This document shows positions 6,735 to 26,503 of a stretch of 32,000 nt of DNA, one piece after another (the stretch's first letter is position 1; each line of letters begins with the position of its first letter). A program made the position numbers and the translations under genes. Under the pieces are notes generated by a model. The model had not been told where the DNA came from. It was given only the letters and a program-made list of their open reading frames with translations, and searched no databases. The stretch lies in NCBI RefSeq assembly GCF_032075065.1, contig NZ_DAMAZC010000017.1, positions 5,580-37,579 of the forward strand, written 5' to 3'. This stretch comes from Atlantibacter sp. (lineage in GTDB: Bacteria > Pseudomonadota > Gammaproteobacteria > Enterobacterales > Enterobacteriaceae).

Positions 6735-8765
6735 ATGCGTTTAAATCCCGGTCAACAACACGCTGTCGAATTCGTCACCGGCCCCTGCCTGGTGCTGGCG
6801 GGCGCTGGCTCCGGAAAGACACGCGTGATCACCAATAAGATCGCCCACCTGATCCGCGGCTGCGGCTATCAGGCCAAACATATCGCGGCAGTGACCTTTA
6901 CCAACAAGGCGGCGCGCGAAATGAAAGAGCGCGTGGCGCAAACCCTGGGGCGCAAAGAGGCGCGCGGCCTGATGATCTCCACTTTCCATACCCTGGGCCT
7001 TGAGATCATTAAACGCGAATACAAAGCCCTGGGCATGAAGGCCAACTTCTCGCTGTTCGACGATACCGACCAGCTGGCGCTGATCAAGGAACTCACCGAC
7101 GGGCTGGTGGAGAACGATAAAGCGCTGTACCAGCAGCTGCTGTCTACCATTTCGAACTGGAAAAACGATCTGCTTAACCCGGCCCAGGCGGCGGCGCAGG
7201 CCAAAGGCGAACGCGACCGCATTTTTGCCCATTGCTATAGCCTGTATGATGCTCATCTCAAAGCCTGTAACGTGCTCGATTTTGACGATCTGATCCTGCT
7301 GCCGACTCTGCTTTTACAGCGTAATGAAGAAGTGCGCGAACGCTGGCAGAACCGCATCCGCTATTTGCTGGTGGATGAGTATCAGGATACCAACACCAGC
7401 CAGTATGAAATGGTGAAGCTGCTGGTGGGCGCGCGGGCGCGGTTTACCGTGGTTGGCGATGACGATCAGTCCATCTACTCCTGGCGCGGCGCGCGTCCGC
7501 AGAACCTGGTGCTGCTTAGCAAAGATTTCCCGGCGCTACAGGTGATTAAGCTGGAACAAAACTACCGCTCATCCGGGCGCATCCTGAAAGCGGCGAATAT
7601 CCTGATCGCCAATAACCCGCACGTGTTTGAGAAAAAGCTGTTTTCTGAACTCGGTTACGGGGCTGAATTAAAAGTGCTGTCGGCCAATCATGAAGAGCAT
7701 GAAGCGGAGCGGGTGGCGGGTGAGCTTATCGCCCATCACTTCATCAATAAAACCCAGTACAAGGATTATGCGATCCTTTACCGCGGCAACCACCAGTCGC
7801 GGGTGTTTGAAAAACTGCTGATGCAAAACCGCATTCCATATCGCATCTCCGGCGGCACCTCGTTTTTCTCACGTCCGGAAATTAAGGACCTGTTAGCCTA
7901 TTTGCGAATACTCACTAACCCGGACGACGACAGCGCGTTTATGCGTATTGTGAATACGCCGCGCCGGGAAATCGGCCCTGCCACGCTGCAAAAACTGGGC
8001 GAATGGGCCAATCAGCGCAATAAGAGTCTGTTCACCGCCAGTTTCGATATGGGGTTGAGCCAGACGCTGACCGGGCGCGGTTATGAATCCTTAACCCGCT
8101 TCACCCACTGGCTGGGCGAGGTGGCTCGCCTGGCGGAGCGCGAGCCGGTGGCGGCGGTGCGCGATCTGATCCACGGGATTGATTACGAATCCTGGCTATA
8201 CGAAACCTCGCCCAGCCAGAAAGCCGCCGAAATGCGCATGAAGAACGTTAACCAGCTGTTTAGCTGGATGACGGAAATGCTGGAGGGCTCGGAGCTTGAG
8301 GAGCCGATGACGCTGACTCAGGTGGTTACCCGTTTCACCCTGCGCGACATGATGGAACGTGGCGAAAGCGAAGAGGATCTCGATCAGGTCCAGTTGATGA
8401 CGCTGCACGCCTCCAAAGGTCTGGAATTCCCGTATGTCTTTTTAGTGGGCATGGAAGAGGGACTGTTGCCGCATCAGAGCAGTATTGATGAAGACAACGT
8501 GGATGAGGAGCGCCGTCTCGCTTATGTCGGCATCACCCGCGCCCAGAAAGAACTGACGTTTACGCTGTGCAAAGAGCGCCGTCAGTACGGGGAGCTGGTG
8601 CGCCCGGAACCGAGTCGCTTTCTGCTGGAGCTGCCGCAGGATGACGTGCTGTGGGAGCAGGAGCGTAAAGTGGTATCACCTCAGGAGCGGATGCAAAAGG
8701 GGCAAGGTCATCTGGCGAATCTGAAGGCGATGATGGCGAAAGCGCGCGGCGAGAAAAACGCATAA
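6735..8765 (+). CDS. rep: ATP-dependent DNA helicase Rep (SF1)
   Basis: This is a 676-aa [43 protein letters not shown] (Walker A), VDEYQDTN and the remaining UvrD/Rep motifs are collinear with E. coli Rep. Confidence 0.97.
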
Positions 8766-10279: not shown

Positions 10280-11548
10280 TTAACCTGTGCGGCGACGGTT
10301 TCGGGGTGCGCCACCGGTGCGACGCGGACCATTGCCGGAGCGAACGCGGGTCAGGCGTTTCGGCGGCGGCAGCTGGTTCAACAGCGCATCAGGGTTGTAT
10401 TTGCTTACCGGAATCGAATGACTGATGTAGCTTTCAATGGCCGGAAGGTTCAACGCATACTCTTCACAGGCCAGACTGATAGAATGCCCGCTGGCGCCTG
10501 CGCGCCCGGTACGGCCAATACGGTGAACGTAATCTTCACAGTCGTCCGGCAGATCGTAGTTGAACACATGGGTTACCGCAGGAATGTGTAAGCCACGCGC
10601 CGCAACATCGGTCGCTACCAGAATATCCAGGTCGCCACGGGTGAATTCTTCAAGAATACGCAGGCGTTTTTTCTGCGCAACGTCGCCGGTTAATAGCCCG
10701 ACGCGATGACCGTCAGCGGCCAGATGACCCCAAATATCTTCACAGCGATGTTTGGTATTGGCGAAAATAATCGCGCGATCTGGCCACTCTTCTTCAATAA
10801 GGGTCTGCAGCAGACGCATCTTTTCTTCGTTGGACGGATAGAAAAGTTCTTCTTTTATGCGGTGGCCGGTTTTCTGTTCCGGTTCGACTTCCACATATTC
10901 CGCGTTGTTCATCTGCTCGAAAGCCAGTTCACGCACGCGATAAGACAGGGTGGCAGAAAACAGCATATTCAGACGCTGGGTCACCGGCGGCATGCGACGG
11001 AACAACCAACGAATGTCCTTAATAAAGCCGAGATCGTACATGCGATCCGCTTCATCAAGCACCACAACCTGGATTGCGCCCAGATTAATGTGGTTTTGCT
11101 TGGCGTAGTCGATTAAACGACCGGTAGTGCCGATCAGAATATCAACGCCGCTTTCCAGTACTTTAAGCTGTTTATCGTAACCGTCGCCGCCGTAGGCCAG
11201 GCCGATTTTCAGGCCGGTGGCTTGGGCAAGCGGTTCTGCATCAGAGTGAATCTGGACGGCGAGTTCACGCGTCGGCGCCATAATAATCGCGCGCGGCTGA
11301 TTCACCTGGCGGTTTTCGATCGCCGGGTTAGAAAGGAGGTAATGAAACGTTGACGTTAAAAACGCCATCGTTTTGCCGGTACCGGTTTGCGCCTGTCCTG
11401 CAACATCACGTCCCGCCAACGTCAGGGGAAGTGCGAGTGCCTGAATCGGGGTGCAATTATGAAAGCCTTTCTTTTCAAGGGCTTCAATCACCGCGGGGTG
11501 CAGGGCGAAGTCGGCAAACTTCTGTTCTGTTAAATGTGTTTTGCTCAT
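10280..11548 (-). CDS. rhlB: ATP-dependent RNA helicase RhlB (DEAD-box, degradosome component)
   Basis: This is a 422-aa ORF. It has [26 protein letters not shown] (Walker A), the DEAD box (VLDEADRM), SAT, and an Arg-rich C-terminal tail. It is divergent from trxA. Confidence 0.96.
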
Positions 11549-11666
11549 AGTGTGGTAGAATATCAGCTAACTATTGCTTTACGAAAGCGTATCCGGTGAA
11601 ATAAAGTCAACCTAATGTTGGTTAATGCTACACCAACACGCCAGGCCTAATCTTGTGGAGTAAAAC

Positions 11667-11996
11667 ATGAGCGATAAAATTATTCACCTGACCGATGACA
11701 GTTTTGACACGGATGTACTAAAAGCGGACGGGTTGATTCTTGTTGATTTCTGGGCAGAGTGGTGCGGCCCTTGTAAAATGATTGCGCCGATTCTGGATGA
11801 AATCGCTGATGAATATCAGGGCAAATTGACCATTGCCAAGCTGAACATTGACCAAAACCCGGGCACGGCGCCGAAATACGGTATCCGCGGCATCCCTACG
11901 CTGCTGCTGTTCAAAAACGGCGAAGTGGCGGCGACCAAAGTGGGTGCGTTGTCTAAAGGTCAGCTGAAAGAGTTTCTGGACGCTAACCTGGCGTAA
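11667..11996 (+). CDS. trxA: Thioredoxin 1
   Basis: The 109-aa product is [55 protein letters not shown]..., with the WCGPC active site. It is essentially the E. coli TrxA sequence. Confidence 0.98.
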
Positions 11997-13855: not shown

Positions 13856-14959
13856 GTGAATTTAATTACCTCGGGTGCCGAGCTAATCGGTATCTTTTTA
13901 TTCACAACCATTTTTCTTTTTTTCGCCCGCAAGGTGGCTAAAAAAATTGGATTGGTGGATAAGCCCAACTTCCGCAAACGCCACCAGGGTCTTATCCCCT
14001 TAGTGGGCGGAATTTCCGTCTTTGCAGGCATCTGTTTTACTTTTGCAATCGCTGACTACTATATCCCTCATGCCATGCTGTATCTGTCATGCGCCGGCGT
14101 TTTGGTACTGGTAGGCGCGCTGGACGATCGTTTCGATATCAGCGTAAAAATTCGCGCGCTGATTCAGGCCATCATTGCTGTCGTCATGATGTGGTTTGGC
14201 GGGCTGTATATGAGCAGCCTGGGCTATATTTTCGGCTCATGGGAAATGGTGCTCGGTCCGTTCGGCTATTTCCTGACACTGTTTGCGGTCTGGGCCGCCA
14301 TCAACGCTTTCAATATGGTTGATGGCATTGACGGGCTGCTCGGCGGGCTTTCCTGCGTGTCGTTTGCCGCCATGGGGCTGATTTTGTGGTTCGATGGGCA
14401 ACTCAGCCTCGCGATGTGGTGCTTCGCCATGATCGCCGCCATCCTTCCCTATATTCTACTGAACCTGGGCGCGCTGGGCCGTCGCTATAAAGTCTTTATG
14501 GGCGACGCAGGCAGTACGCTGATTGGTTTTACCGTTATCTGGATCCTGCTGGAAACCACCCAGGGCGCGACCCGTCCGATTAGCCCGGTCACCGCGCTAT
14601 GGATCATCGCCATCCCGTTAATGGATATGGTCGCGATCATGTATCGTCGGTTACGCCGCGGCATGAGCCCTTTCTCGCCTGACCGCCAGCATATTCATCA
14701 TTTGATCATGCGGGCTGGTTTTACTTCCCGACAAGCTTTTGTTCTGATTACCCTTGCCGCCGCGCTGCTGGCGGGCATTGGCGTCGCTTCCGAATATGCA
14801 CATTTTATTCCTGAATGGGTAATGTTGGCATTGTTTTTGCTAGCATTTTTCCTCTACGGGTACTGTATTAAACGGGCGTGGAAAGTCGCGCGTCTGATTA
14901 AGCGCATCAAACGTCGTATGCGCAGAAATAACGATAACAACCCGACATTAACCAAATGA
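13856..14959 (+). CDS. wecA: UDP-GlcNAc:undecaprenyl-phosphate GlcNAc-1-phosphate transferase
   Basis: The ORF track starts at 13775 (394 aa). Homology to E. coli WecA (MNLLTVSTDLISIFLFTT...) starts at the GTG at 13856 (VNLITSGAELIGIFLFTTIFLFFARKVAKK...), which gives 367 aa, the K-12 length. It is a polytopic membrane protein and the first gene of the ECA cluster. Confidence 0.93.
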   Translation: MNLITSGAELIGIFLFTTIFLFFARKVAKKIGLVDKPNFRKRHQGLIPLVGGISVFAGICFTFAIADYYIPHAMLYLSCAGVLVLVGALDDRFDISVKIRALIQAIIAVVMMWFGGLYMSSLGYIFGSWEMVLGPFGYFLTLFAVWAAINAFNMVDGIDGLLGGLSCVSFAAMGLILWFDGQLSLAMWCFAMIAAILPYILLNLGALGRRYKVFMGDAGSTLIGFTVIWILLETTQGATRPISPVTALWIIAIPLMDMVAIMYRRLRRGMSPFSPDRQHIHHLIMRAGFTSRQAFVLITLAAALLAGIGVASEYAHFIPEWVMLALFLLAFFLYGYCIKRAWKVARLIKRIKRRMRRNNDNNPTLTK

Positions 14960-14969
14960 AGCTGGGGAA

Positions 14970-16019
14970 GTGATGAAAGAGCAATTGCCAGGCACACAAC
15001 AGGGGATGGTTGAAAATGAGCTGGACGTGCGCGGTCTGTTCCGCACGTTCTGGGCGGGCAAAATCTGGATCGTCGGGTTTGCCGCGCTGTTTATCATCGG
15101 CGCGCTGGTGTACACCATTTTCGCACGTCAGGAGTGGAGCGCGACGGCAATCACCGATCGGCCTACCGTGAATATGCTGGGTAGCTACTACTCGCAGCAG
15201 CAGTTCCTGCGTAATCTGGATGTGAAAGCCAATCCTAATGGAGTTGAGCAGCCTTCGGTCATGGATGATGCGTATAAAGAATTCATCATGCAGCTTTCCG
15301 CCTGGGATACCCGCCGCGATTTCTGGCTACAAACCGATTATTACCAGCAGCGTAAAGCCGGTAACAGTAAAGTCGACGCAGCGCTGTTGGATGAACTGAT
15401 CGGCAATATCCAGTTCACGGCAGGGGATTTCACCCGCAATTTGAATGACAGCGTCAAGCTGATCGCGGAAACCGCGCCGGACGCCAATAACCTGCTGCGT
15501 CAGTACGTGGCCTTTGCAAGCGAGCGTGCCGCCAGCCATTTAAATGACGAACTAAAAGGTGCCTGGGCAGCGCGCACTATTCAGATGAAGGCACAGGTCA
15601 AGCGTCAGGAAGCCGTGGCCAAAGCTATCTATACCCGCAAAGTGCAAAGCGTGCAGGAAGCGTTAAAAATCGCCCAGCAGCACAATATTTCCACTAGCGA
15701 GACTCAGGTGCCTGCCGAGGAGCTGCCGGATTCCGAACTGTTTATGCTTGGGCGTCCGATGTTGCAGGCGCGCCTTGAGAATCTTCAGGCGGTCGGGCCT
15801 TCTTTTGACATCAGCTACGATCAAAATCGGGCGATGCTTACGACCCTTAATGTGGGTCCCTCGCTCGATCCCCGTTTTCAAACCTACCGTTATTTGAGAA
15901 CGCCTGAAGAACCGGTGAAGCGCGACAGTCCGCGCAGAGCATTCCTGATGATTATGTGGGGCGCAGTGGGTGCGCTCATTGGCGCAGGCGTTGCCCTGGC
16001 CCGTCGTCGTCCGACATAA
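14970..16019 (+). CDS. wzzE: ECA polysaccharide chain-length modulator (PCP-1 family)
   Basis: This is a 349-aa ORF. ENELDVRGLFRTFWAGKIW...RPTVNMLGSYYSQQQFLRNLDV...PRRAFLMIMWGAVGALIGAGVALARR is collinear with E. coli WzzE, with two terminal TM segments. The start is either the GTG at 14970 or the ATG at 14973. Confidence 0.92.
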   Translation: MMKEQLPGTQQGMVENELDVRGLFRTFWAGKIWIVGFAALFIIGALVYTIFARQEWSATAITDRPTVNMLGSYYSQQQFLRNLDVKANPNGVEQPSVMDDAYKEFIMQLSAWDTRRDFWLQTDYYQQRKAGNSKVDAALLDELIGNIQFTAGDFTRNLNDSVKLIAETAPDANNLLRQYVAFASERAASHLNDELKGAWAARTIQMKAQVKRQEAVAKAIYTRKVQSVQEALKIAQQHNISTSETQVPAEELPDSELFMLGRPMLQARLENLQAVGPSFDISYDQNRAMLTTLNVGPSLDPRFQTYRYLRTPEEPVKRDSPRRAFLMIMWGAVGALIGAGVALARRRPT

Positions 16020-16074
16020 GCATTTTGTAATGCGCGTAGCGTGCTGCGCGCGGATTTAATGGAAGAGAAGCGCT

Positions 16075-16296
16075 GTGAAAGTATTAACCGTTTTTGGCAC
16101 GCGTCCGGAAGCCTTCAAAGCAGGCACGGTACGTCAGGTCGGTACTGACAGCACGCGTATTGTTGCGGAAGTCTCCCGTCTTCTGCATGACGATAGGGAA
16201 TATCAAGTTATGAGCAAGGCCCATAATCCTTGTGGCGATGGAAAAGCCTGCGTTCGCATTTTGCAAGCATTAGAAAATAATCGGATAACACTATGA
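16075..16296 (+). pseudogene. wecB: UDP-GlcNAc 2-epimerase remnant with an in-frame internal deletion (73 codons versus about 376)
   Basis: The GTG-started 73-aa ORF is [13 protein letters not shown]|[60 protein letters not shown]. The first roughly 14 residues match the WecB N-terminus ([19 protein letters not shown]...). The rest matches the WecB C-terminus (...TERPEAVTAGTVRLVGTD...NPYGDG...NNRISL). About 300 central codons, including the catalytic core, are absent. The stop still overlaps the wecC ATG (ATGA at 16293-16296). Confidence 0.85.
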
Positions 16297-17555
16297 GTTT
16301 CTCAACTATTTCAGTAATTGGGCTGGGATACATTGGTTTGCCAACCGCCGCCGCCTTCGCATCGCGTCAGAAGCATGTTGTAGGTGTCGACATTAGCTCC
16401 CGCGCGGTTGACACCATTAACCGGGGTGAAATTCATATTGTTGAACCAGAATTAGGCAGCGTCGTGAAAGCGGCGGTCGAAGGCGGTTTTCTGCGCGCGA
16501 CCACTCATCCCGAGGAAGCCGATGCGTTTCTGATTGCTGTGCCGACGCCATTTAAAGGCGAGCATGAACCAGACATGAAATACGTGCAGGCTGCGGCGGA
16601 ATCTATCGCCCCCGTGCTGCGCAAAGGCAACCTGGTGATCCTGGAATCCACATCGCCCGTCGGCTCTACCGAACAAATGGCGCAGTGGCTGGCGGCATTA
16701 CGCCCGGATCTCAGTTTTCCTCAACAGGCTGGCGATGATGCTGATATCAACATCGCCTATTGCCCGGAACGCGTCCTGCCCGGTCAGGTGATGGTTGAGC
16801 TGATTAAAAACGACCGCGTAGTCGGCGGGATGACGGCAGTCTGCTCCGCGCGCGCCAGTGAACTGTATTACATCTTCCTCGAAGGTGAGTGTGTGGTGAC
16901 AAACGCCCGCACCGCTGAAATGTGCAAACTAACCGAAAACAGCTTCCGCGATGTGAATATCGCCTTCGCCAATGAGCTGTCGCTGATTTGCGCCGATCAG
17001 CAGATCAACGTCTGGGAGCTGATTCGCCTGGCGAACCGCCACCCGCGCGTGAATATTTTGCAGCCCGGCCCAGGCGTTGGCGGGCACTGCATTGCAGTCG
17101 ATCCGTGGTTTATTGTGGCGCAGAATCCCGAGCAGGCGCGTCTTATCCGTACTGCCCGCGAAGTGAACGATTACAAACCGCATTGGGTGCTCGATCGCGT
17201 TAAAGCGACCGTCGCCGATTGCCTGACCGCCAGCGGCAAGCGCGCCAGCGAACTGAAAATCGCCTGCTTTGGGCTGGCGTTCAAACCTAATATCGATGAT
17301 TTGCGCGAAAGCCCGGCGATGGAGATTGCCCATCAAATCGCCCAGTGGAACAGCGGTGAAACGCTGGTGGTCGAACCCAATATTCATCAGCTGCCGGAAA
17401 GCCTTGCGCCGTACTGTAAGCTGACCGCGATTGACGAAGCGCTGGCCCAGGCCGATGTGCTGGTGATGCTGGTCGATCATGCGCCGTTTAAAGCGATTGA
17501 GGCCAGCGCTGTTCATCAAACGTGGATCGTCGATACCAAAGGGGTATGGCGATGA
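16293..17555 (+). CDS. wecC: UDP-N-acetyl-D-mannosamine dehydrogenase
   Basis: This is a 420-aa [30 protein letters not shown] (NAD-binding GxGxxG) and the remainder are collinear with E. coli WecC, ending ...DTKGVWR. Confidence 0.95.
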
Positions 17556-17575
17556 AGCGTGGTTTACGGGAGTAA
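17552..17575 (+). other. 7-codon mini-ORF at the position where rffG-rffH would lie (putative deletion scar)
   Basis: The sequence is ATG AAG CGT GGT TTA CGG GAG TAA. Its ATG overlaps the wecC stop as ATGA, which is where rffG normally starts. Its 3' end carries GGGAG (17568-17572), which serves as the SD for the wecD GTG at 17580. Nothing resembling RffG (about 355 aa) or RffH (about 293 aa) is encoded between wecC and wecD. Confidence 0.6.
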
Positions 17576-17579
17576 CGCC

Positions 17580-18257
17580 GTGACTATCCAGGCCCGCATT
17601 GATGCGCTTGAATGGGAAAGCCGGTTCTTTGGAATCAATACCGCAATCCTGCGCCTGGGCGATGATGCGCCGGTGCTGGATGCTACGCAGTTAACCGCCT
17701 GGTCCCGTTTGCAGGCGAAAGTGCCCGCGCAGCGTACAGACTGGCTGGACGATCTACAGCAGATGCAGTTTCAGCTGGTAGAAGGTGAAGCCGATTTTGT
17801 GCTGGATGTTGGCGTCGGTAATACCGACCCCGGCCTTCAGCCTGCGGGAGCAGAAGATATCCCCGCGCTGCGCGCCCTGGCGGCCACGCTGTTTGCCAAC
17901 AGCCGTTTTCGCGCCCCCTGGTATGCGCCTGACGCCAGCGGGCGTTTTTACGCTCAGTGGGTGGAGAATGCCGTTAACGGCAGTTTCGATCATACCTGCC
18001 TGGTACTGCGCGAGGACGACGGCGCAATCCGGGGATTTGTCACGCTGCGCCGCCTCAATGACAGCGAGACGCGTATCGGCCTGCTGGGCGGTTATGGCGC
18101 AGGGCGCATCCTGATGGATGCCGCGCGCCGCTGGTGTGAAATTCGTCAATCAAACGTGTTGCGTGTGGCGACCCAAATGGGCAATCGCGCCGCTATTCGT
18201 CGTTATATTCAAAGCGGTGCTACCCTGGACAGCGCCGCGTACTGGCTATACAGGTGA
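17580..18257 (+). CDS. wecD: dTDP-fucosamine acetyltransferase (GNAT)
   Basis: The ORF track starts at 17559. The GTG at 17580 gives MTIQARIDALEWESRFFGINTAILRL..., the same length register as E. coli WecD ([26 protein letters not shown]...). The product is 225 aa and contains the conserved SRFRAPWYAPDASGRFYAQW and LRVATQMGN...YIQSGA...AYWLYR blocks. Confidence 0.88.
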   Translation: MTIQARIDALEWESRFFGINTAILRLGDDAPVLDATQLTAWSRLQAKVPAQRTDWLDDLQQMQFQLVEGEADFVLDVGVGNTDPGLQPAGAEDIPALRALAATLFANSRFRAPWYAPDASGRFYAQWVENAVNGSFDHTCLVLREDDGAIRGFVTLRRLNDSETRIGLLGGYGAGRILMDAARRWCEIRQSNVLRVATQMGNRAAIRRYIQSGATLDSAAYWLYR

Positions 18258-18261
18258 ACAG

Positions 18262-19392
18262 ATGATCCCATTTAATGCTCCGCCCGTGGTTGGAACGGAA
18301 ATTGACTACATGCAGTCTGCGATGGGCAGTGGAAAATTGTGTGGTGATGGCGGCTTTACCCGTCGTTGCCAGCAGTGGTTTGAGCAACGCTTCGGCAGCG
18401 CCAAGGTATTGCTTACGCCGTCCTGCACCGCATCGCTGGAAATGGCGGCACTGCTGTTGGATATTCAGCCCGGCGATGAAGTGATCATGCCGAGCTATAC
18501 CTTCGTTTCTACCGCCAACGCTTTTGTACTGCGTGGCGCGAATATCGTCTTTGTCGATTTGCGTCCCGACACCATGAACATCGACGAAACGCTGATTGAA
18601 GCGGCGATAACCGATAAAACCCGCGCGATCGTGCCGGTACATTATGCGGGCGTCGCCTGTGAAATGGACGCGATTATGGCCATCGCGAAAAAGCATAGCC
18701 TGTTCGTGGTGGAAGACGCGGCGCAGGGCGTGATGTCCACCTATAAAGGCCGGGCGTTAGGTACCATTGGCCATATCGGCTGTTTTAGTTTCCATGAAAC
18801 CAAGAACTACACGGCGGGCGGCGAAGGCGGCGCGACGCTGATTAACGACCCGAAGCTGATTGAACGTGCGGAAATCATTCGCGAGAAAGGCACCAACCGC
18901 AGCCAGTTCTTCCGGGGCCAGGTCGATAAATATACCTGGCGGGATATCGGCTCCAGCTATTTGATGTCAGATCTCCAGGCGGCCTATTTGTGGGCGCAAC
19001 TGGAGGCGGCGGATCGCATCAACCAGCAGCGCCTGACGCTGTGGCAAACCTATTATGATGCGCTCGAACCGCTGGCGCGCGCAGGGCGTATCGAGCTGCC
19101 CTCCATCCCGGATTCCTGCGTCCATAACGCGCATATGTTTTATATCAAACTGCGCGATATCGACGATCGCAGCAATCTGATTGCCTGGCTGAAAGAGGCG
19201 GAGATCCTGGCGGTGTTCCACTACATCCCGCTGCACAGCTGTCCGGCAGGCGAAAAATTTGGCGAATTCTTTGGCGAAGACCGCTACACCACCCGCGAAA
19301 GCGAACGCCTGCTGCGGTTGCCGCTGTTCTACAATCTGGCGCCTTTCAACCAGCGTACGGTTATCAATTCGCTGTTAAGTTACTTCGCCTGA
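18262..19392 (+). CDS. wecE: dTDP-4-amino-4,6-dideoxygalactose transaminase (DegT/WecE family, PLP)
   Basis: The ORF track starts at 18118 (424 aa). Homology to E. coli WecE (MIPFNAPPVVGTELDYMQSAMGSGKLCGDG...) starts at the ATG at 18262, which gives 376 aa. The SFHETKN PLP-lysine motif is present. Confidence 0.94.
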   Translation: MIPFNAPPVVGTEIDYMQSAMGSGKLCGDGGFTRRCQQWFEQRFGSAKVLLTPSCTASLEMAALLLDIQPGDEVIMPSYTFVSTANAFVLRGANIVFVDLRPDTMNIDETLIEAAITDKTRAIVPVHYAGVACEMDAIMAIAKKHSLFVVEDAAQGVMSTYKGRALGTIGHIGCFSFHETKNYTAGGEGGATLINDPKLIERAEIIREKGTNRSQFFRGQVDKYTWRDIGSSYLMSDLQAAYLWAQLEAADRINQQRLTLWQTYYDALEPLARAGRIELPSIPDSCVHNAHMFYIKLRDIDDRSNLIAWLKEAEILAVFHYIPLHSCPAGEKFGEFFGEDRYTTRESERLLRLPLFYNLAPFNQRTVINSLLSYFA

Positions 19393-19393
19393 T

Positions 19394-20644
19394 ATGTCTC
19401 TTGCAAAAGCCTCAGTGTGGACGGCAGCGTCTACGCTTATCAAGATTGCCGCCGGTTTGCTGGTAATTAAACTGCTGGCGGTGGCGTTCGGCCCGGAAGG
19501 GGTCGGGCAGGCAGGAAATTTTCGTCAGCTCATTACCGTATTAGGCGTGCTGGCAGGTGCCGGGATTTTTAATGGCGTCACTAAGCTGGTTGCCCAGCAT
19601 CATGACGATCCTGAACAACTCAGACAGGTCACCGGCACGTCGTCGGCGATGGTATTAGGGTTTTCCACGCTGTTGGCGATCGTTTTTTTGCTGGCCGCAC
19701 AGCCCATCAGCATTGGCCTGTTTGGGCACGACCGTTACCAGAACGTGGTGCGGCTGGTGGCTTTTATCCAGATGGGTATCGCCTGGGCTAACCTGACGCT
19801 GGCGATTTTGAAAGGCTTTCGCGATGCGCGCGGCAATGCGCTGTCGCTGATTATCGGCAGTCTCATTGGCGTCGCCGCCTGGTATCTGTGTTATCGCCTC
19901 GGTGGCTATGAAGGCGCTTTGCTGGGGCTGGCGCTGGTGCCCGCGCTGGTGGTTTTCCCGGCGTTATGGATGCTTAAACAGCGTGAGCATGTGCCTTTTG
20001 GTTACCTGAAACCACGCTGGGATAGCCCTCTCGCCAGACAGCTGTCGAAGTTTACCCTGATGGCGTTAATCACGTCGGTTACGCTGCCCGTAGCGTATGT
20101 GATGATGCGAAACCTCATGGCGGCCCAGTACAGCTGGGATGAAGTCGGCATCTGGCAAGGGGTAAGTACTATCTCTGATGCCTATCTGCAATTTATTACC
20201 GCCACGTTCAGCGTCTGGCTGCTGCCTACGCTGTCGCGCTTAACCGCCAAACAGGACATCACCCGTGAAGTGTTGCGATCGCTGAAGTTTGTGCTTCCGG
20301 CGGTTGCTGCGGCGAGCTTAACGGTCTGGCTGTTACGCGATGTCGCTATCTGGTTGCTATTCTCGACGAAATTTACCGCGATGCGCGATTTGTTCGCTTG
20401 GCAACTAGTGGGCGATGTGCTGAAAGTGGGCGCTTACGTGTTTGGTTATCTGGTGATCGCCAAAGCGTCGCTGCGTTTTTATATCCTGGCGGAGCTTAGC
20501 CAGTTTGCGCTGCTGACCGGGTTCTCCCGCTGGCTTATCCCTACTCACGGTGCGCTGGGTGCGGCGCAGGCATATATGGCCACCTATATCGTTTATTTCA
20601 CCTTATGTTGCGGCGTATTTTTACTCTGGCGCAGGAAAGCATGA
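19394..20644 (+). CDS. wzxE: ECA lipid III flippase (MOP/Wzx family)
   Basis: This 416-aa polytopic membrane protein begins [64 protein letters not shown]. Its length and position equal E. coli WzxE. Confidence 0.92.
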
Positions 20645-21717
20645 ATCCGTTAATTCATATTCTGGGGTCGGATATTCCCCACCATAACCAAACCGTCCTG
20701 CGCTTTTTCAATGATGAATTAGCGTCGCTGGGGGCAGTCGCCCGGCGCTTTATGGTGGTTTCGCCGGATGCGTCTTTGCAAAGCCAGTATCCCGCGCTGG
20801 AAATCGCGTGCTTTCCCACTAAAAAAGCGCTCAGCGCTGCGGTTATCGCGCTGGCGCGTGGCGATCGCGCGCAGCGTTTTTTCTTCCACGGACAGTTTAA
20901 TGCGCCGCTGTGGATAGCGTTGCTGACCGGCGGGCTAAAATCATCCCAGGTGAGCTGGCATATCTGGGGGGCCGATCTGTATGAAGCATCGCGCAGTCTC
21001 AAGTTTCGTCTGTTCTATTTTCTGCGCCGACTGGCGCACAAGCGTATTGGGCACGTGTTTGCCACGCGCGGCGACCTGAATTATTTCCATCAGCGTAATC
21101 CTGCGGTGCCTGGCTCGCTGCTCTATTTCCCGACCCGCATGGATCCAGCGCTCAACACGCTGGAAAAAGCGCCAGCGGCGGGGAGATTGACCATTCTGGT
21201 AGGAAACTCCGGCGACAGGAGCAATGCGCATATTGCAGCGCTGAAGGCGGTGCACCAGCAGTTTGGCGATAACGTAGACGTGATTGTGCCGATGGGGTAT
21301 CCAGCCAACAATCAGGATTATATTGCGCAAGTTGAGCAGGCCGGAGCGTCTCTGTTCAGCGCGGGTAATCTGCATATTCTGCGCGAGCAGATGGCGTTTG
21401 ACGATTATCTGGCCATGCTGCGGCGCTGCGACCTGGGCTATTTTATTTTTGCCCGCCAGCAGGGCATCGGCACGCTGTGCCTGCTGATTCAGGCGGAGAT
21501 CCCCTGCGTGTTGAGCCGCCAAAACCCGTTCTGGCAAGATATGACGGAGCAGAATCTGCCGGTTTTGTTCACCGACGATATACTTAACGAAACGGTTATT
21601 CGCGAAGCGCAGCGTCAGCTTGCCCTGGTGGATAAAACAACCATCGCCTTCTTCCGGCCCGGCTATATCACTGGCTGGCATCAGGCGTTACGCGTGGCGG
21701 CGGGAGAGGCATCATGA
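20641..21717 (+). CDS. wecF: TDP-Fuc4NAc:lipid II Fuc4NAc transferase
   Basis: The ORF track starts at 20605. The ATG at 20641 overlaps the wzxE stop (ATGA) and gives [27 protein letters not shown]..., which matches the E. coli WecF start ([25 protein letters not shown]...). The product is 358 aa. Confidence 0.92.
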
Positions 21718-23075
21718 GTCTTTTGCAGTTTAGCGGCCTGTTTATCGTCTGGCTGTTGGCGACGCTGTTTATTGCTACCACCACCTGGTTTGAATTCCGC
21801 CGGGTACGGTTTAATTTCAATATATTTTTCTCGCTGCTGTTCCTGCTGACCTTTTTCTTCGGCTTTCCGTTTACCGCCTTACTGGTATTTCGCTTCGGCG
21901 TCGCCGTGGTGCCCGCGGAAGTGCTGCTACAAGCGCAGCTCGCCGCCGCCTGTTTCTATGGCATCTATTATGTTACCTATAAAACGCGGTTGAGGCCGCA
22001 GGGCAGCGAGCGCACGCGCCAATTGTTCTCGGTAAATCGCGTTGAGGCGCAGCTGACGTGGCTACTGTTGATGGCAGTAGCGCTGGTCAGCGTGGGCATC
22101 TTCTTTATGCATAACGGCTTTTTGCTGTTTCGCCTGCACTCCTACAGCCAGATATTTTCCAGCGAAGTGTCCGGCGTGGCCCTGAAGCGCTTCTTTTACT
22201 TCTTTATTCCGGCGATGCTGGTGATCTATTTCCTACGCCAGAGCGTCCGGGCGTGGCTATTTTTTCTGGTGGTGACCGTGGGGTTCGGTTTGCTGACCTA
22301 CGCCATCGTCGGCGGGACGCGCGCCAATATCATTATCGCCTTCGCGATCTTTTTGTTTATCGGCATTATTCGCGGCTGGATATCCCTGTGGATGCTGGCG
22401 GCGGCAGGGGCGATGGGCATTGTCGGGATGTTCTGGCTGGCGCTTAAGCGCTATGGGCTGGATGTCAGCGGTGATGAAGCGTTTTATACGTTCCTTTACC
22501 TGACCCGCGATACCTTCTCGCCATGGGAAAACCTGGCGCTGCTGCTACAGAACTACGGCAACATTGAATTCCAGGGGCTGGCACCTGTCGTGCGCGATTT
22601 TTATGTCTTTATTCCTACCTGGCTGTGGCCAGACAGACCTGGTATTGTGCTCAACTCGGCGAACTATTTTACCTGGGAAGTGTTGAACAACCACTCCGGT
22701 CTGGCGATTTCGCCGACGCTGATCGGTTCGCTGGTCGTGATGGGTGGGGTGTGGTTTATTCCGCTGGGCGCGGTCGTCGTCGGGCTGATTATCAAATGGT
22801 TTGACTGGCTGTATCAGCACGGAGTTACCGAGACCAATCGCTATAAGGCCGCGATTTTGCAGAGTTTCTGCTTTGGGGCCATCTTTAATATGATCGTGCT
22901 GGCTCGTGAAGGCCTCGATTCGTTTGTTTCACGTGTGGTGTTTTTTATGGTGATTTTCGGCGCCTGTTTGCTGATCGCCAAATTGCTGTACTGGATGTTG
23001 GAAAGTGCCGGGTTGATTCGTGGCAGGGTCCGTTCACTATCAGGGCGTTTTCCGCCCGGTCACAATCTCGGATAA
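21714..23075 (+). CDS. wzyE: ECA polymerase
   Basis: This 453-aa, highly hydrophobic protein begins [52 protein letters not shown]. The start overlaps the wecF stop (ATGA). Position and length match E. coli WzyE. Confidence 0.92.
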
Positions 23076-23083
23076 GGAAGCAG

Positions 23084-23824
23084 ATGACTGACGACAATAG
23101 CGCGCCGCGTTATAACTTGCGCGGGCTGAATTTGCTCGGTTGGCGTGATAAACAACATGCCCTCAATTATCTCTATGCGCAGGGACAGCTTAAATATGGG
23201 ACGCTGGTCGCCATCAACGCCGAGAAGATGCTCACGATTAATGACGATGCAGAAGTCAGGGCGCTGATTGAGGCGGCAGAGTACAAGTACGCGGATGGCA
23301 TCAGCGTCGTGCGTTCGGTACGCAAAAAATATCCCCAGGCGCAGATATCCCGCGTAGCGGGCGCAGACCTGTGGGAAGCATTAATGGCGCGCGCCGGGCA
23401 GGAAGGTACGCCGGTGTTTCTGGTCGGCGGAAAACCGCAAGTGCTGAGCGAAACGGTCAGCCAGCTACGGCAGCGTTGGCAGGTCAACGTGGTCGGCGAA
23501 CAGGATGGTTATTTCTCACCAGAATCGCGTCAGGCGTTATTTGAACGGATCCGCGATAGTGGTGCGAAAATCATCACGGTGGCGATGGGCTCGCCGCGCC
23601 AGGAAATATTCATGCGCGACTGCCGAAAGGTGCTCCCGGATGCGCTGTATATGGGCGTTGGCGGCACCTATGACGTCTTCACCGGCCATGTGAAGCGTGC
23701 GCCGAAAGCGTGGCAGCGCCTGGGGCTGGAGTGGTTATACCGTCTGCTCTCCCAGCCCAGCCGTATCACCCGCCAGCTCCGTTTACTGCGCTATCTCGCC
23801 TGGCATTACACCGGCAAGCTATAA
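23084..23824 (+). CDS. wecG: UDP-ManNAcA:lipid I ManNAcA transferase (WecG/TagA family)
   Basis: This is a 246-aa ORF. ...VAINAEKML...ADGISVV...FLVGGKP...MGSPRQE...[17 protein letters not shown] is typical of the WecG/TagA/CpsF family. It is the last gene of the ECA cluster. Confidence 0.93.
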
Positions 23825-25546: not shown

Positions 25547-25623
<77 letters not shown>

Positions 25624-25694
25624 TTTACCCGGTGCTGGAGCTGCGGTGGTCTGTTAAGTAGGCAGAACCGCGTGGAAGTAAAGAATTAAGTCGT

Positions 25695-25771
25695 GGTGGC
25701 TATAGCTCAGTTGGTAGAGCCCTGGATTGTGATTCCAGTTGTCGTGGGTTCGAGTCCCATTAGCCACCCCA
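25695..25771 (+). tRNA. hisR: tRNA-His (anticodon GTG)
   Basis: The 77-nt sequence GGTGGCTATAGCTCAGTTGGTAGAGCCCTGGATTGTGATTCCAGTTGTCGTGGGTTCGAGTCCCATTAGCCACCCCA includes the His-specific extra 5' G(-1). The CCA end is encoded. Confidence 0.97.
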
Positions 25772-25786
25772 TTATTTAGTGGCGAT

Positions 25787-25873
25787 GCGAAGGTGGCGGA
25801 ATTGGTAGACGCGCTAGCTTCAGGTGTTAGTGTCTTAACGGACGTGAGGGTTCAAGTCCCTCTCTTCGCACCA
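25787..25873 (+). tRNA. leuT: tRNA-Leu (anticodon CAG)
   Basis: This 87-nt class II tRNA has a long variable arm: GCGAAGGTGGCGGAATTGGTAGACGCGCTAGCTTCAGGTGTTAGTGTCTTAACGGACGTGAGGGTTCAAGTCCCTCTCTTCGCACCA. Confidence 0.97.
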
Positions 25874-25911
25874 CAACTGAATTGAACTAAAAATTCAAAA
25901 AAGCAGTAATT

Positions 25912-25988
25912 CGGCGAGTAGCGCAGCTTGGTAGCGCAACTGGTTTGGGACCAGTGGGTCGGAGGTTCGAATCCTCTCTCGCCGACCA
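25912..25988 (+). tRNA. proM: tRNA-Pro (anticodon TGG)
   Basis: The 77-nt sequence is CGGCGAGTAGCGCAGCTTGGTAGCGCAACTGGTTTGGGACCAGTGGGTCGGAGGTTCGAATCCTCTCTCGCCGACCA. It is the last gene of the four-tRNA operon. Confidence 0.97.
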
Positions 25989-26305: not shown

Positions 26306-26503
26306 GTAGATGCTCATTCCATCTCTTATGTTCGCCTCAGGCTTCATAAACACAGGAATGACGCAGAGCCGTTTAACGGTGCTTATCGTCCACCGAGAGA
26401 TGTCGCTAACGCCTCATCAAACACCATGGACATAACGTTGAGTGAAGCACCTCTTTGTTGTCACAGACCTCTTTAACACCTGCCAACTGGCAGGTGTTTT
26501 TTT
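26306..26503 (+). ncRNA. glmZ: Small RNA GlmZ (activator of glmS translation, RapZ/RNase E substrate)
   Basis: GTAGATGCTCATTCCATCTCTTATGTTCGCCT...GACGCAGAGCCGTTTAACGGTGCTTATCGTCCAC...GTTGAGTGAAGCACC...TTGTTGTCA matches the E. coli GlmZ (SraJ/RyiA) sequence as I recall it. The first 32 nt are identical. It ends in the terminator ACACCTGCC-AACT-GGCAGGTGT plus T7 (26476-26503). Its location upstream of hemY is the K-12 location. Confidence 0.88.

Follow-up and report, generated by a model that had tools for sequence, protein, structure and literature searches.

In Escherichia coli, WecB (RffE/NfrC; PDB 1F6D and 1VGV; TIGR00236; PF02350) is a non-hydrolysing UDP-GlcNAc 2-epimerase whose gene lies between wzzE and wecC in the operon for the enterobacterial common antigen (ECA). 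ECA is regarded as a feature of all free-living Enterobacterales; its loss has been listed for endosymbionts only, and Atlantibacter is listed as ECA-positive (PMC7439462). Laboratory null mutants of E. coli wecB (nfrC) resist phage N4, Vequintavirinae and phi92-like phages, and wecB is the only wec gene required for the NGR phage-receptor glycan (PMC8669472, PMC8594841). Of 5426 complete E. coli genomes, 5425 retain the gene; the exception is strain CH4790 (NZ_CM166351.1, 557224-557628), where a different deletion runs from the middle of wecA through wzzE into wecB.

Here we describe an Atlantibacter locus in which a 222-bp ORF stands in the place of wecB. This ORF is very probably a non-functional remnant of the gene, produced by a deletion between repeats and now drifting in an ECA operon that is otherwise constrained. 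As in the laboratory null mutants, a single gene is lost and the rest of the wec operon is in place; those mutants were engineered or selected, however, whereas the stub is natural and occurs in every sampled member of its lineage. The loss of a gene needed for ECA synthesis is shared with endosymbiotic Enterobacterales (PMC7439462), but theirs belongs to a general genome reduction, while here one gene is affected, its neighbours are conserved and the flanks are ordinary and syntenic with E. coli. CH4790 is likewise a natural strain with a truncated wecB; its deletion, in contrast, also takes wzzE and half of wecA, and it is a single isolate in which the affected genes are annotated as pseudogenes.

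Gene content of the locus

The whole stretch of DNA that we analysed (the window, 32 kb) has the gene order of the E. coli ilv-rep-gppA-rhlB-trxA-rho-wec-yifK-tRNA-hemYXDC region. The genomes nearest to it are those of Atlantibacter subterraneus (92-96% nucleotide identity), after which come a further Atlantibacter species and a genome resembling A. hermannii. The ECA operon, as far as wecG, is composed as follows:

13856-14959: wecA, the first gene of the ECA operon as listed here
14973-16019, forward strand: wzzE, ECA chain-length regulator, intact, upstream neighbour of the wecB stub (NCBIfam NF008645, 646.6 bits, full length)
16020-16074, forward strand: wzzE-wecB spacer, with the native wecB ribosome-binding region GGAAGAGAAG kept ahead of the GTG start
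16075-16296, forward strand: wecB remnant, 73-codon ORF (WP_313080019.1), WecB residues 1-13 plus the last 60
16293-16296, forward strand: ATGA overlap of the stub stop and the wecC start, arranged as in intact operons
16293-17555, forward strand: wecC, UDP-ManNAc dehydrogenase, intact (NF008286, 823 bits)
17552-17579, forward strand: rffG-rffH deletion scar, in which the rffG start ATGAAGCGT is fused to sequence resembling the 3' end of rffH (7-codon ORF, 17552-17575, MKRGLRE*)
17580-23824, forward strand: wecD, wecE, wzxE, wecF, wzyE and wecG, all full length (wecD at 17580-18257, GTG start at 17580)

Every ECA operon gene except the 73-codon ORF passes its NCBIfam equivalog cut-off over the full length. 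The spacer between wzzE and wecB is collinear with two A. subterraneus loci (L002 and L087) as far as the deletion junction. The ATGA overlap, which had been described as kept, is present and is found likewise in intact relatives.

Some further features of the window were recorded. Measured against A. subterraneus, the ECA genes (13856-23824) have a synonymous divergence of 0.2-0.55 and the flanking housekeeping genes one of 0.06-0.22, and a stretch at wecE (18150-18600) is almost identical to A. subterraneus; the ECA locus looks mosaic. A tRNA cluster (Arg-His-Leu-Pro) lies at 25547-25988. Within it, the window and the JGI contig L086, elsewhere 99.8% identical, differ strongly and by many indels in the spacer that separates tRNA-Arg(CCG) from tRNA-His (25620-25695). 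Rfam matches in the window include the GlmZ sRNA (26306-26503, 186.9 bits) and the trxA 5'-UTR thermometer (11609-11696, 79.7 bits).

A 73-codon ORF between wzzE and wecC

The ORF between wzzE and wecC has a GTG start, 73 codons and a TGA stop, and reads exactly as a preliminary description of this DNA had it. Its parts are:

16075-16113, forward strand: N-terminal segment, codons 1-13, identical in 39/39 nt to intact A. subterraneus wecB
16102-16119, forward strand: deletion junction, a single hybrid repeat copy, CGTCCGGAAGCCAT(C/T)AA(G/A), located by blastn and sequence comparison
16114-16293, forward strand: C-terminal segment, WecB residues 317-376, with 8 amino-acid differences from A. 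subterraneus, 5 of them on the window's own branch
16135-16137, forward strand: CAG (Gln), L324Q; Leu in 84/84 full-length WecB
16231-16233, forward strand: TGT (Cys), Y356C, in the NPYGDG motif; Tyr in 84/84 full-length WecB
16273-16275, forward strand: GAA (Glu), K370E; Lys in 84/84 full-length WecB

Aligned to E. coli WecB by BLASTP, stub residues 1-19 match WecB 1-19, with identity through residue 13, and residues 10-73 match WecB 313-376 (72% identity, E = 4e-31); the two alignments overlap in the RPEA motif, and WecB residues 20-312 have no counterpart in the stub. The alignment to full-length WecB that had been suggested thus recovers the two termini and nothing between them, in agreement with the fusion of N- and C-terminus first described, although the number of residues that follow RPEA has to be corrected from about 58 to 60. 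The stub runs collinear with WecB, its residues 1-13 corresponding to WecB 1-13 and its residues 14-73 to WecB 317-376. It also shares with E. coli wecB the location between wzzE and wecC, the start region (GTG/ATG) and the ATGA overlap.

What separates the ORF from a functional WecB, a two-domain protein of ~360-390 aa at the curated family score, is the interior of the protein. The NCBIfam wecB model, TIGR00236, matches the stub at profile positions 305-365 only, with 65.7 bits against a cut-off of 210.15. Residues 14-316 are missing, which takes away the greater part of the two Rossmann-like domains along with the cleft between them; the catalytic core, located between the RPEA motifs and forming the active-site cleft, is gone with this segment. 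Since the alignment leaves the whole core uncovered, the product should be unable to act as an epimerase. Family-invariant residues are not all conserved even in the retained part, as L324Q, Y356C and K370E are found there; the Cys in place of the Tyr of NPYGDG had already been pointed out, and its column proves invariant in the 84 full-length WecB.

Origin of the deletion

Comparison by blastn with the closest intact genome (A. subterraneus L002) yields two collinear blocks, both covering 16102-16118, between which 909 bp (303 codons) are missing. This agrees with the in-frame deletion of about 0.9 kb that had been proposed. Intact A. subterraneus wecB carries a direct repeat, CGTCCGGAAGCCAT(C/T)AA, at codons 10-16 and 313-319, with 14 nt exact and 17/19 overall. 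The copies read CGT CCG GAA GCC ATC AAG upstream and CGT CCG GAA GCC ATT AAA downstream; they are codon-aligned, encode RPEAIK twice and lie 909 bp apart, so that the junction does fall in a short direct repeat, as had been claimed. In the window a single hybrid copy is left (...GCC TTC AAA). Since this hybrid has the upstream copy's C at 16116 and the downstream copy's A at 16119, the crossover lies inside the repeat or at its 3' end. The A-to-T change at 16114 (Ile to Phe) is later.

Short-direct-repeat deletions have their classic examples in the deletion hot spots of lacI, attributed to slipped mispairing or RecA-independent recombination. The wecB deletion has the same hallmarks, with the repeat at both ends, one copy left and a deletion length equal to the repeat spacing. 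It differs from the lacI type in that the repeat is no chance match: the same motif is encoded in two similar halves of one enzyme, and a deletion of this kind would therefore always be in frame and could recur in distant taxa. The length of the repeat is particular to the clade, however. An in-register run of 14 nt was found only in the five A. subterraneus loci among the 85 genomes compared, most species having 8 nt or fewer (8 nt in E. coli), which suggests that this clade is predisposed to the deletion.

We propose that the ancestor resembled present-day A. subterraneus, with both halves of wecB encoding R-P-E-A-I-K in near-identical codons, and that one misalignment between the copies removed one of them together with codons 14-316. 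The route would have been replication slippage or short-homology recombination, which give the same product. As the repeats are codon-aligned, this product would necessarily be in frame and preserve the ATGA overlap, and no selection is needed to explain the frame. The remnant would have kept the wecB ribosome-binding site, the start codon and the stop that overlaps the wecC start; with these retained, wecC and the genes downstream should still be translated.

Occurrence of the stub allele

The exact 73-aa stub is present in five independent public assemblies (Logan SRR27200988 and SRR1749304; ENA ERZ28646210 and ERZ27263649; JGI 3300011726), whose DNA is 99.4-100% identical to the window; the JGI contig measures 79 kb. 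It is therefore not an assembly error. A literature search turned up no paper that names the runs or samples. Between these assemblies the flanks differ by 0 to 8 SNPs per locus and the stub itself by none. The SNPs lie in scattered, mostly synonymous patches in wecA, wzzE, wecC, wecG, rep and rhlB. Tight patches of this kind were noted within the stub lineage at 14230-14281, 15332-15929, 16961-16976, 10772-10847 and 7652-7664, and look like short recombination imports.

A 376-aa wecB was found in all 84 other genomes compared, and at the same place in all three Atlantibacter species representatives. The set consists of 80 species representatives, the E. coli locus and four more loci of A. subterraneus, less one representative in which wecB is cut by a contig end. 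The stub was seen in window-like DNA only: it is shorter than all its orthologues, as a pseudogene would be, and confined to one lineage, every sampled member of which carries it. The exact WzzE and WecC of the window occur only together with the stub. We looked for an intermediate lineage, with the flanks of the window and an intact wecB, and found none; the other members of the WecC cluster differ at at least 12 residues. The SNPs among the members' flanks, the lack of any in the stub and the missing intermediate imply that a small natural lineage diversified only after the deletion had occurred.

Loss of constraint on the stub

The 60 C-terminal codons of the stub differ from A. subterraneus by 9 synonymous and 8 nonsynonymous changes (dN/dS 0.24), compared with a dN/dS of 0.07-0.10 for the same codons among intact genomes. 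Three of 25 invariant columns are changed in the stub (L324Q, Y356C and K370E) versus one of 909 in wzzE, wecC, wecD, wecE and wzxE (Fisher p = 6.7e-5), the 25 being the C-terminal positions otherwise invariant in the 84 full-length WecB. With two outgroups to define the window's branch, 5 nonsynonymous and 2 synonymous substitutions in the stub fall on it; wecC, wecD, wecE, wzxE and wecF pooled have 30 and 134 (Fisher p = 0.004).

At 5-7% overall nucleotide divergence, the stub has diverged no more than its flanks. A burst of mutation at the junction was considered and rejected on this ground; what has changed is rather the kind of substitution. Judged by these substitution patterns, the stub is shown to drift as a pseudogene that has lost purifying selection relative to its neighbours. 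The substitutions are few (5 to 8 events), and the timing of the deletion is accordingly imprecise.

Relaxed selection on the stub had been suspected from the outset, and the three substitutions at invariant columns and the nonsynonymous excess bear this out. The rare codons (AGG, CGG, ATA and CTA) that had been put forward as a sign of it are indeed present, but they are ancestral, being identical in intact A. subterraneus wecB, and so give no evidence of decay.

The rffG-rffH gap

Downstream of wecC the operon lacks rffG and rffH, and the GTG start of wecD (17580) follows directly after the scar of their deletion. We considered this absence as an unusual second lesion linked to that of wecB and rejected it, since the pair is missing at this position in 50 of 80 Enterobacteriaceae species representatives and A. 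subterraneus CP100494 has the same rffG-rffH junction with an intact wecB. The loss of rffGH is thus normally tolerated. A. subterraneus is polymorphic for the gap, other strains with identical WecC keeping rffG-rffH. From this distribution, the gap is a common variant, older than the wecB deletion and unrelated to it. In E. coli K-12, rmlA and rmlB are paralogues of the pair, and genes of this kind elsewhere in the genome presumably stand in for the lost rffGH.

Similar stubs in other bacteria

A search with the stub detected a second case in Pantoea sp. C8B4 (GCA_051336905.1, L093 10094-10309), a 71-aa stub made of WecB 1-21 and 325-374 in an ECA operon that is otherwise complete, without rffGH. 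Compared with a close relative that has the intact gene, the Pantoea deletion is of exactly 909 bp, in the same register. Its junction (CAG|GTC) lies six codons farther downstream, with 2 nt of microhomology, and the RPEA quasi-repeat that lies upstream may have steered the mispairing. The C-terminal part of this stub has 3 nonsynonymous and 0 synonymous differences, and the neighbouring genes have a dN/dS of 0.02-0.10.

A profile of hypothetical stubs recovered RPEA-joined fusions in unrelated bacteria (P0186/P0190, P0188, P0204, P0205, P0207 and P0203). In one contig (L178, 2312-4956; Logan SRR25542889) the stub comes immediately after an intact epimerase gene and one for a wecC-like dehydrogenase; redundant copies do, then, get reduced in this way. 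In another (L177) an RPEA-junction stub lies among heptosyltransferase-type genes. The stubs of Pantoea sp. C8B4 and of P0186, P0188, P0204, P0205, P0207 and P0203 are, like ours, in-frame fusions of the WecB N- and C-terminus, but they arose in independent events and other taxa, the Pantoea stub with its 2 nt of microhomology and that of L178 beside an intact wecB-wecC pair. In each case the RPEA-junction stub looks like the full-length genes from its own group of bacteria, which indicates independent origins and not one conserved family of small proteins. The RPEA pair is thus a recurrent, built-in site of in-frame deletion across the enzyme family, struck independently in several bacteria.

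State of the remaining ECA operon

Against A. subterraneus, the genes of the ECA operon have dN/dS values of 0.02-0.15 (wecC, 0.033; wecD to wecG, 0.03-0.15). The count of nonsynonymous changes in the downstream genes is 30 for the window's branch and 31 for its sister, without excess; if selection had been as relaxed on them as on the stub, ~117 further changes of this type should have accumulated over 1769 codons, with a lower confidence bound of ~48. In wzzE, none of 161 invariant columns is changed. The sole change among the 909 invariant columns of the five ECA genes is WecC N35S (16395-16397), ~100 bp downstream of the stub, where Ser replaces an Asn found in all 85 other WecC compared; of the nonsynonymous changes in WecC, 7 map to the window's branch and 3 to its sister. 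Neither the window nor L086 has a frameshift or stop in ~7.5 kb of the operon. The remaining ECA-specific genes show no decay or loss of the kind expected in an ECA-negative organism, all being full length and above their equivalog cut-offs.

No second UDP-GlcNAc 2-epimerase gene (PF02350) is present inside the 32-kb window. A metagenome scan for a second or relocated wecB returned samples that included neither those with the stub nor the known A. subterraneus sample. Redundancy through a plasmid-borne wecB was considered and rejected: the top PLSDB matches show a chromosome-like wecB-wecC context, and no Atlantibacter plasmid was found. The record pF524-3 (NZ_OY843411.1, ~94 kb) contains rho, trxA, rhlB and the whole wec operon, which marks it as a piece of chromosome filed under a plasmid name; the same may hold for further PLSDB entries of ~90-140 kb in which wecB-wecC matches at equal identity.

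Discussion

The window probably comes from a metagenome-assembled genome (its NCBI name is 'Atlantibacter sp.'), and a repeat flanks the deletion, so it could be asked whether a full-length wecB has been collapsed at the repeat in assembly or binning. We give this practically no credence, for the same junction recurs in five further assemblies from different projects and assemblers, a repeat of 14-17 nt is below the usual assembly k-mers, and the stub has substitutions of its own that are absent from every intact gene. A real stub might still be a useful one, namely a functional small protein of a new WecB-derived family under selection: its ORF is open, its ribosome-binding site and its coupling to wecC appear to be kept, RefSeq annotates it as a protein and several other bacteria have fusions built in the same way. 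Against this, the origins of these stubs are independent, each resembling the full-length gene of its own taxon and not the other stubs; the Atlantibacter stub has substitutions at residues invariant in WecB and a nonsynonymous/synonymous ratio near neutral on its branch; and AlphaFold2 predicts no confident fold (mean pLDDT 49.8, from a single-sequence prediction, which is weak evidence). Among the members of the lineage themselves the stub has zero variation. We regard a selected small protein as highly improbable, and the conserved short-gene family in relatives that would have spoken against decay is not what we found, the stub being limited to one drifting lineage. Loss of wecB could also have been favoured as a suppressor, relieving a toxic build-up of lipid II after an earlier loss of rffG-rffH. 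The order of events suits this, in that CP100494 has the scar and an intact wecB, and dead-end ECA intermediates are known to be harmful (PMC7439462). Yet the 50 of 80 species representatives without rffG-rffH at this place keep a full-length wecB, as does CP100494 itself, and a suppressor role is in our view very unlikely.

More weight has to be given to the rival in which the lineage is ECA-negative, having no WecB, hence no UDP-ManNAc(A) and no lipid II, with the remaining wec genes idle. The preliminary description had gone further in stating that ECA lipid II cannot form; put so categorically this is not supported, given that the other operon genes show no relaxation while the stub has decayed, and by pathway logic ECA would be impossible only if UDP-ManNAc had no other enzyme source. 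In favour of an ECA-negative state are the pathway logic of the ECA review (PMC7439462), the clearly dead stub, the absence from the window of any epimerase gene besides wecB, and WecC, with N35S and its 7 versus 3 nonsynonymous changes. On the other side stand the ~117 extra changes expected (at least ~48 by the lower bound), where 30 were observed against 31 on the sister branch; the single altered position among 909; the ~7.5 kb free of frameshifts and stops in the window and L086; and the same review, in which ECA loss is confined to endosymbionts and Atlantibacter counts as positive. The lack of relaxed selection downstream makes a total loss of ECA doubtful, and continued purifying selection argues that the eight ECA-specific genes are still in use, although the intact downstream genes would say nothing of current use if the deletion were very recent and the changes in the stub had arisen otherwise. 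We therefore hold an ECA-negative lineage to be rather unlikely. UDP-ManNAc is likely supplied by a second, hypothetical epimerase encoded outside the window; we consider this the most likely situation, and complete loss of ECA a serious but less likely rival. A broader proposal would be that WecB has been specifically shed while ECA, or an ECA-like polymer, is still built by way of a non-orthologous source of UDP-ManNAc or an altered sugar donor, with phage pressure making use, in distant bacteria, of the codon-aligned RPEA repeat as a hot spot that recurs throughout the family. Taken as a whole this appears improbable; if true, ECA synthesis would be separated from the WecB-dependent NGR phage-receptor glycan.

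As for a selective force, one may speculate on escape from phages that need the WecB-made ManNAc glycan (N4-like phages and Vequintavirinae). Since wecB is the sole wec gene needed for the NGR glycan, the receptor of N4-like, Vequintavirinae and phi92-like phages, such escape would be a plausible reason for losing wecB alone.

The event is ordinary in kind, a pseudogene made by repeat-mediated deletion, and unusual in its target. RefSeq names the 73-aa remnant 'UDP-N-acetylglucosamine 2-epimerase [Atlantibacter sp.]' (WP_313080019.1), a label from which automated reconstruction of pathways would mistakenly conclude that wecB is there. Its interest lies in the target, in its presence in every sampled member of a free-living lineage and in its recurrence. 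With ECA held to be universal (PMC7439462) and wecB kept by all but one of the complete E. coli genomes, a free-living lineage with a dead wecB is an unusual natural case. It offers a natural test of whether ECA is dispensable, of whether another enzyme can supply UDP-ManNAc, and of WecB loss as a route of resistance to phages that use the NGR glycan (PMC8669472).
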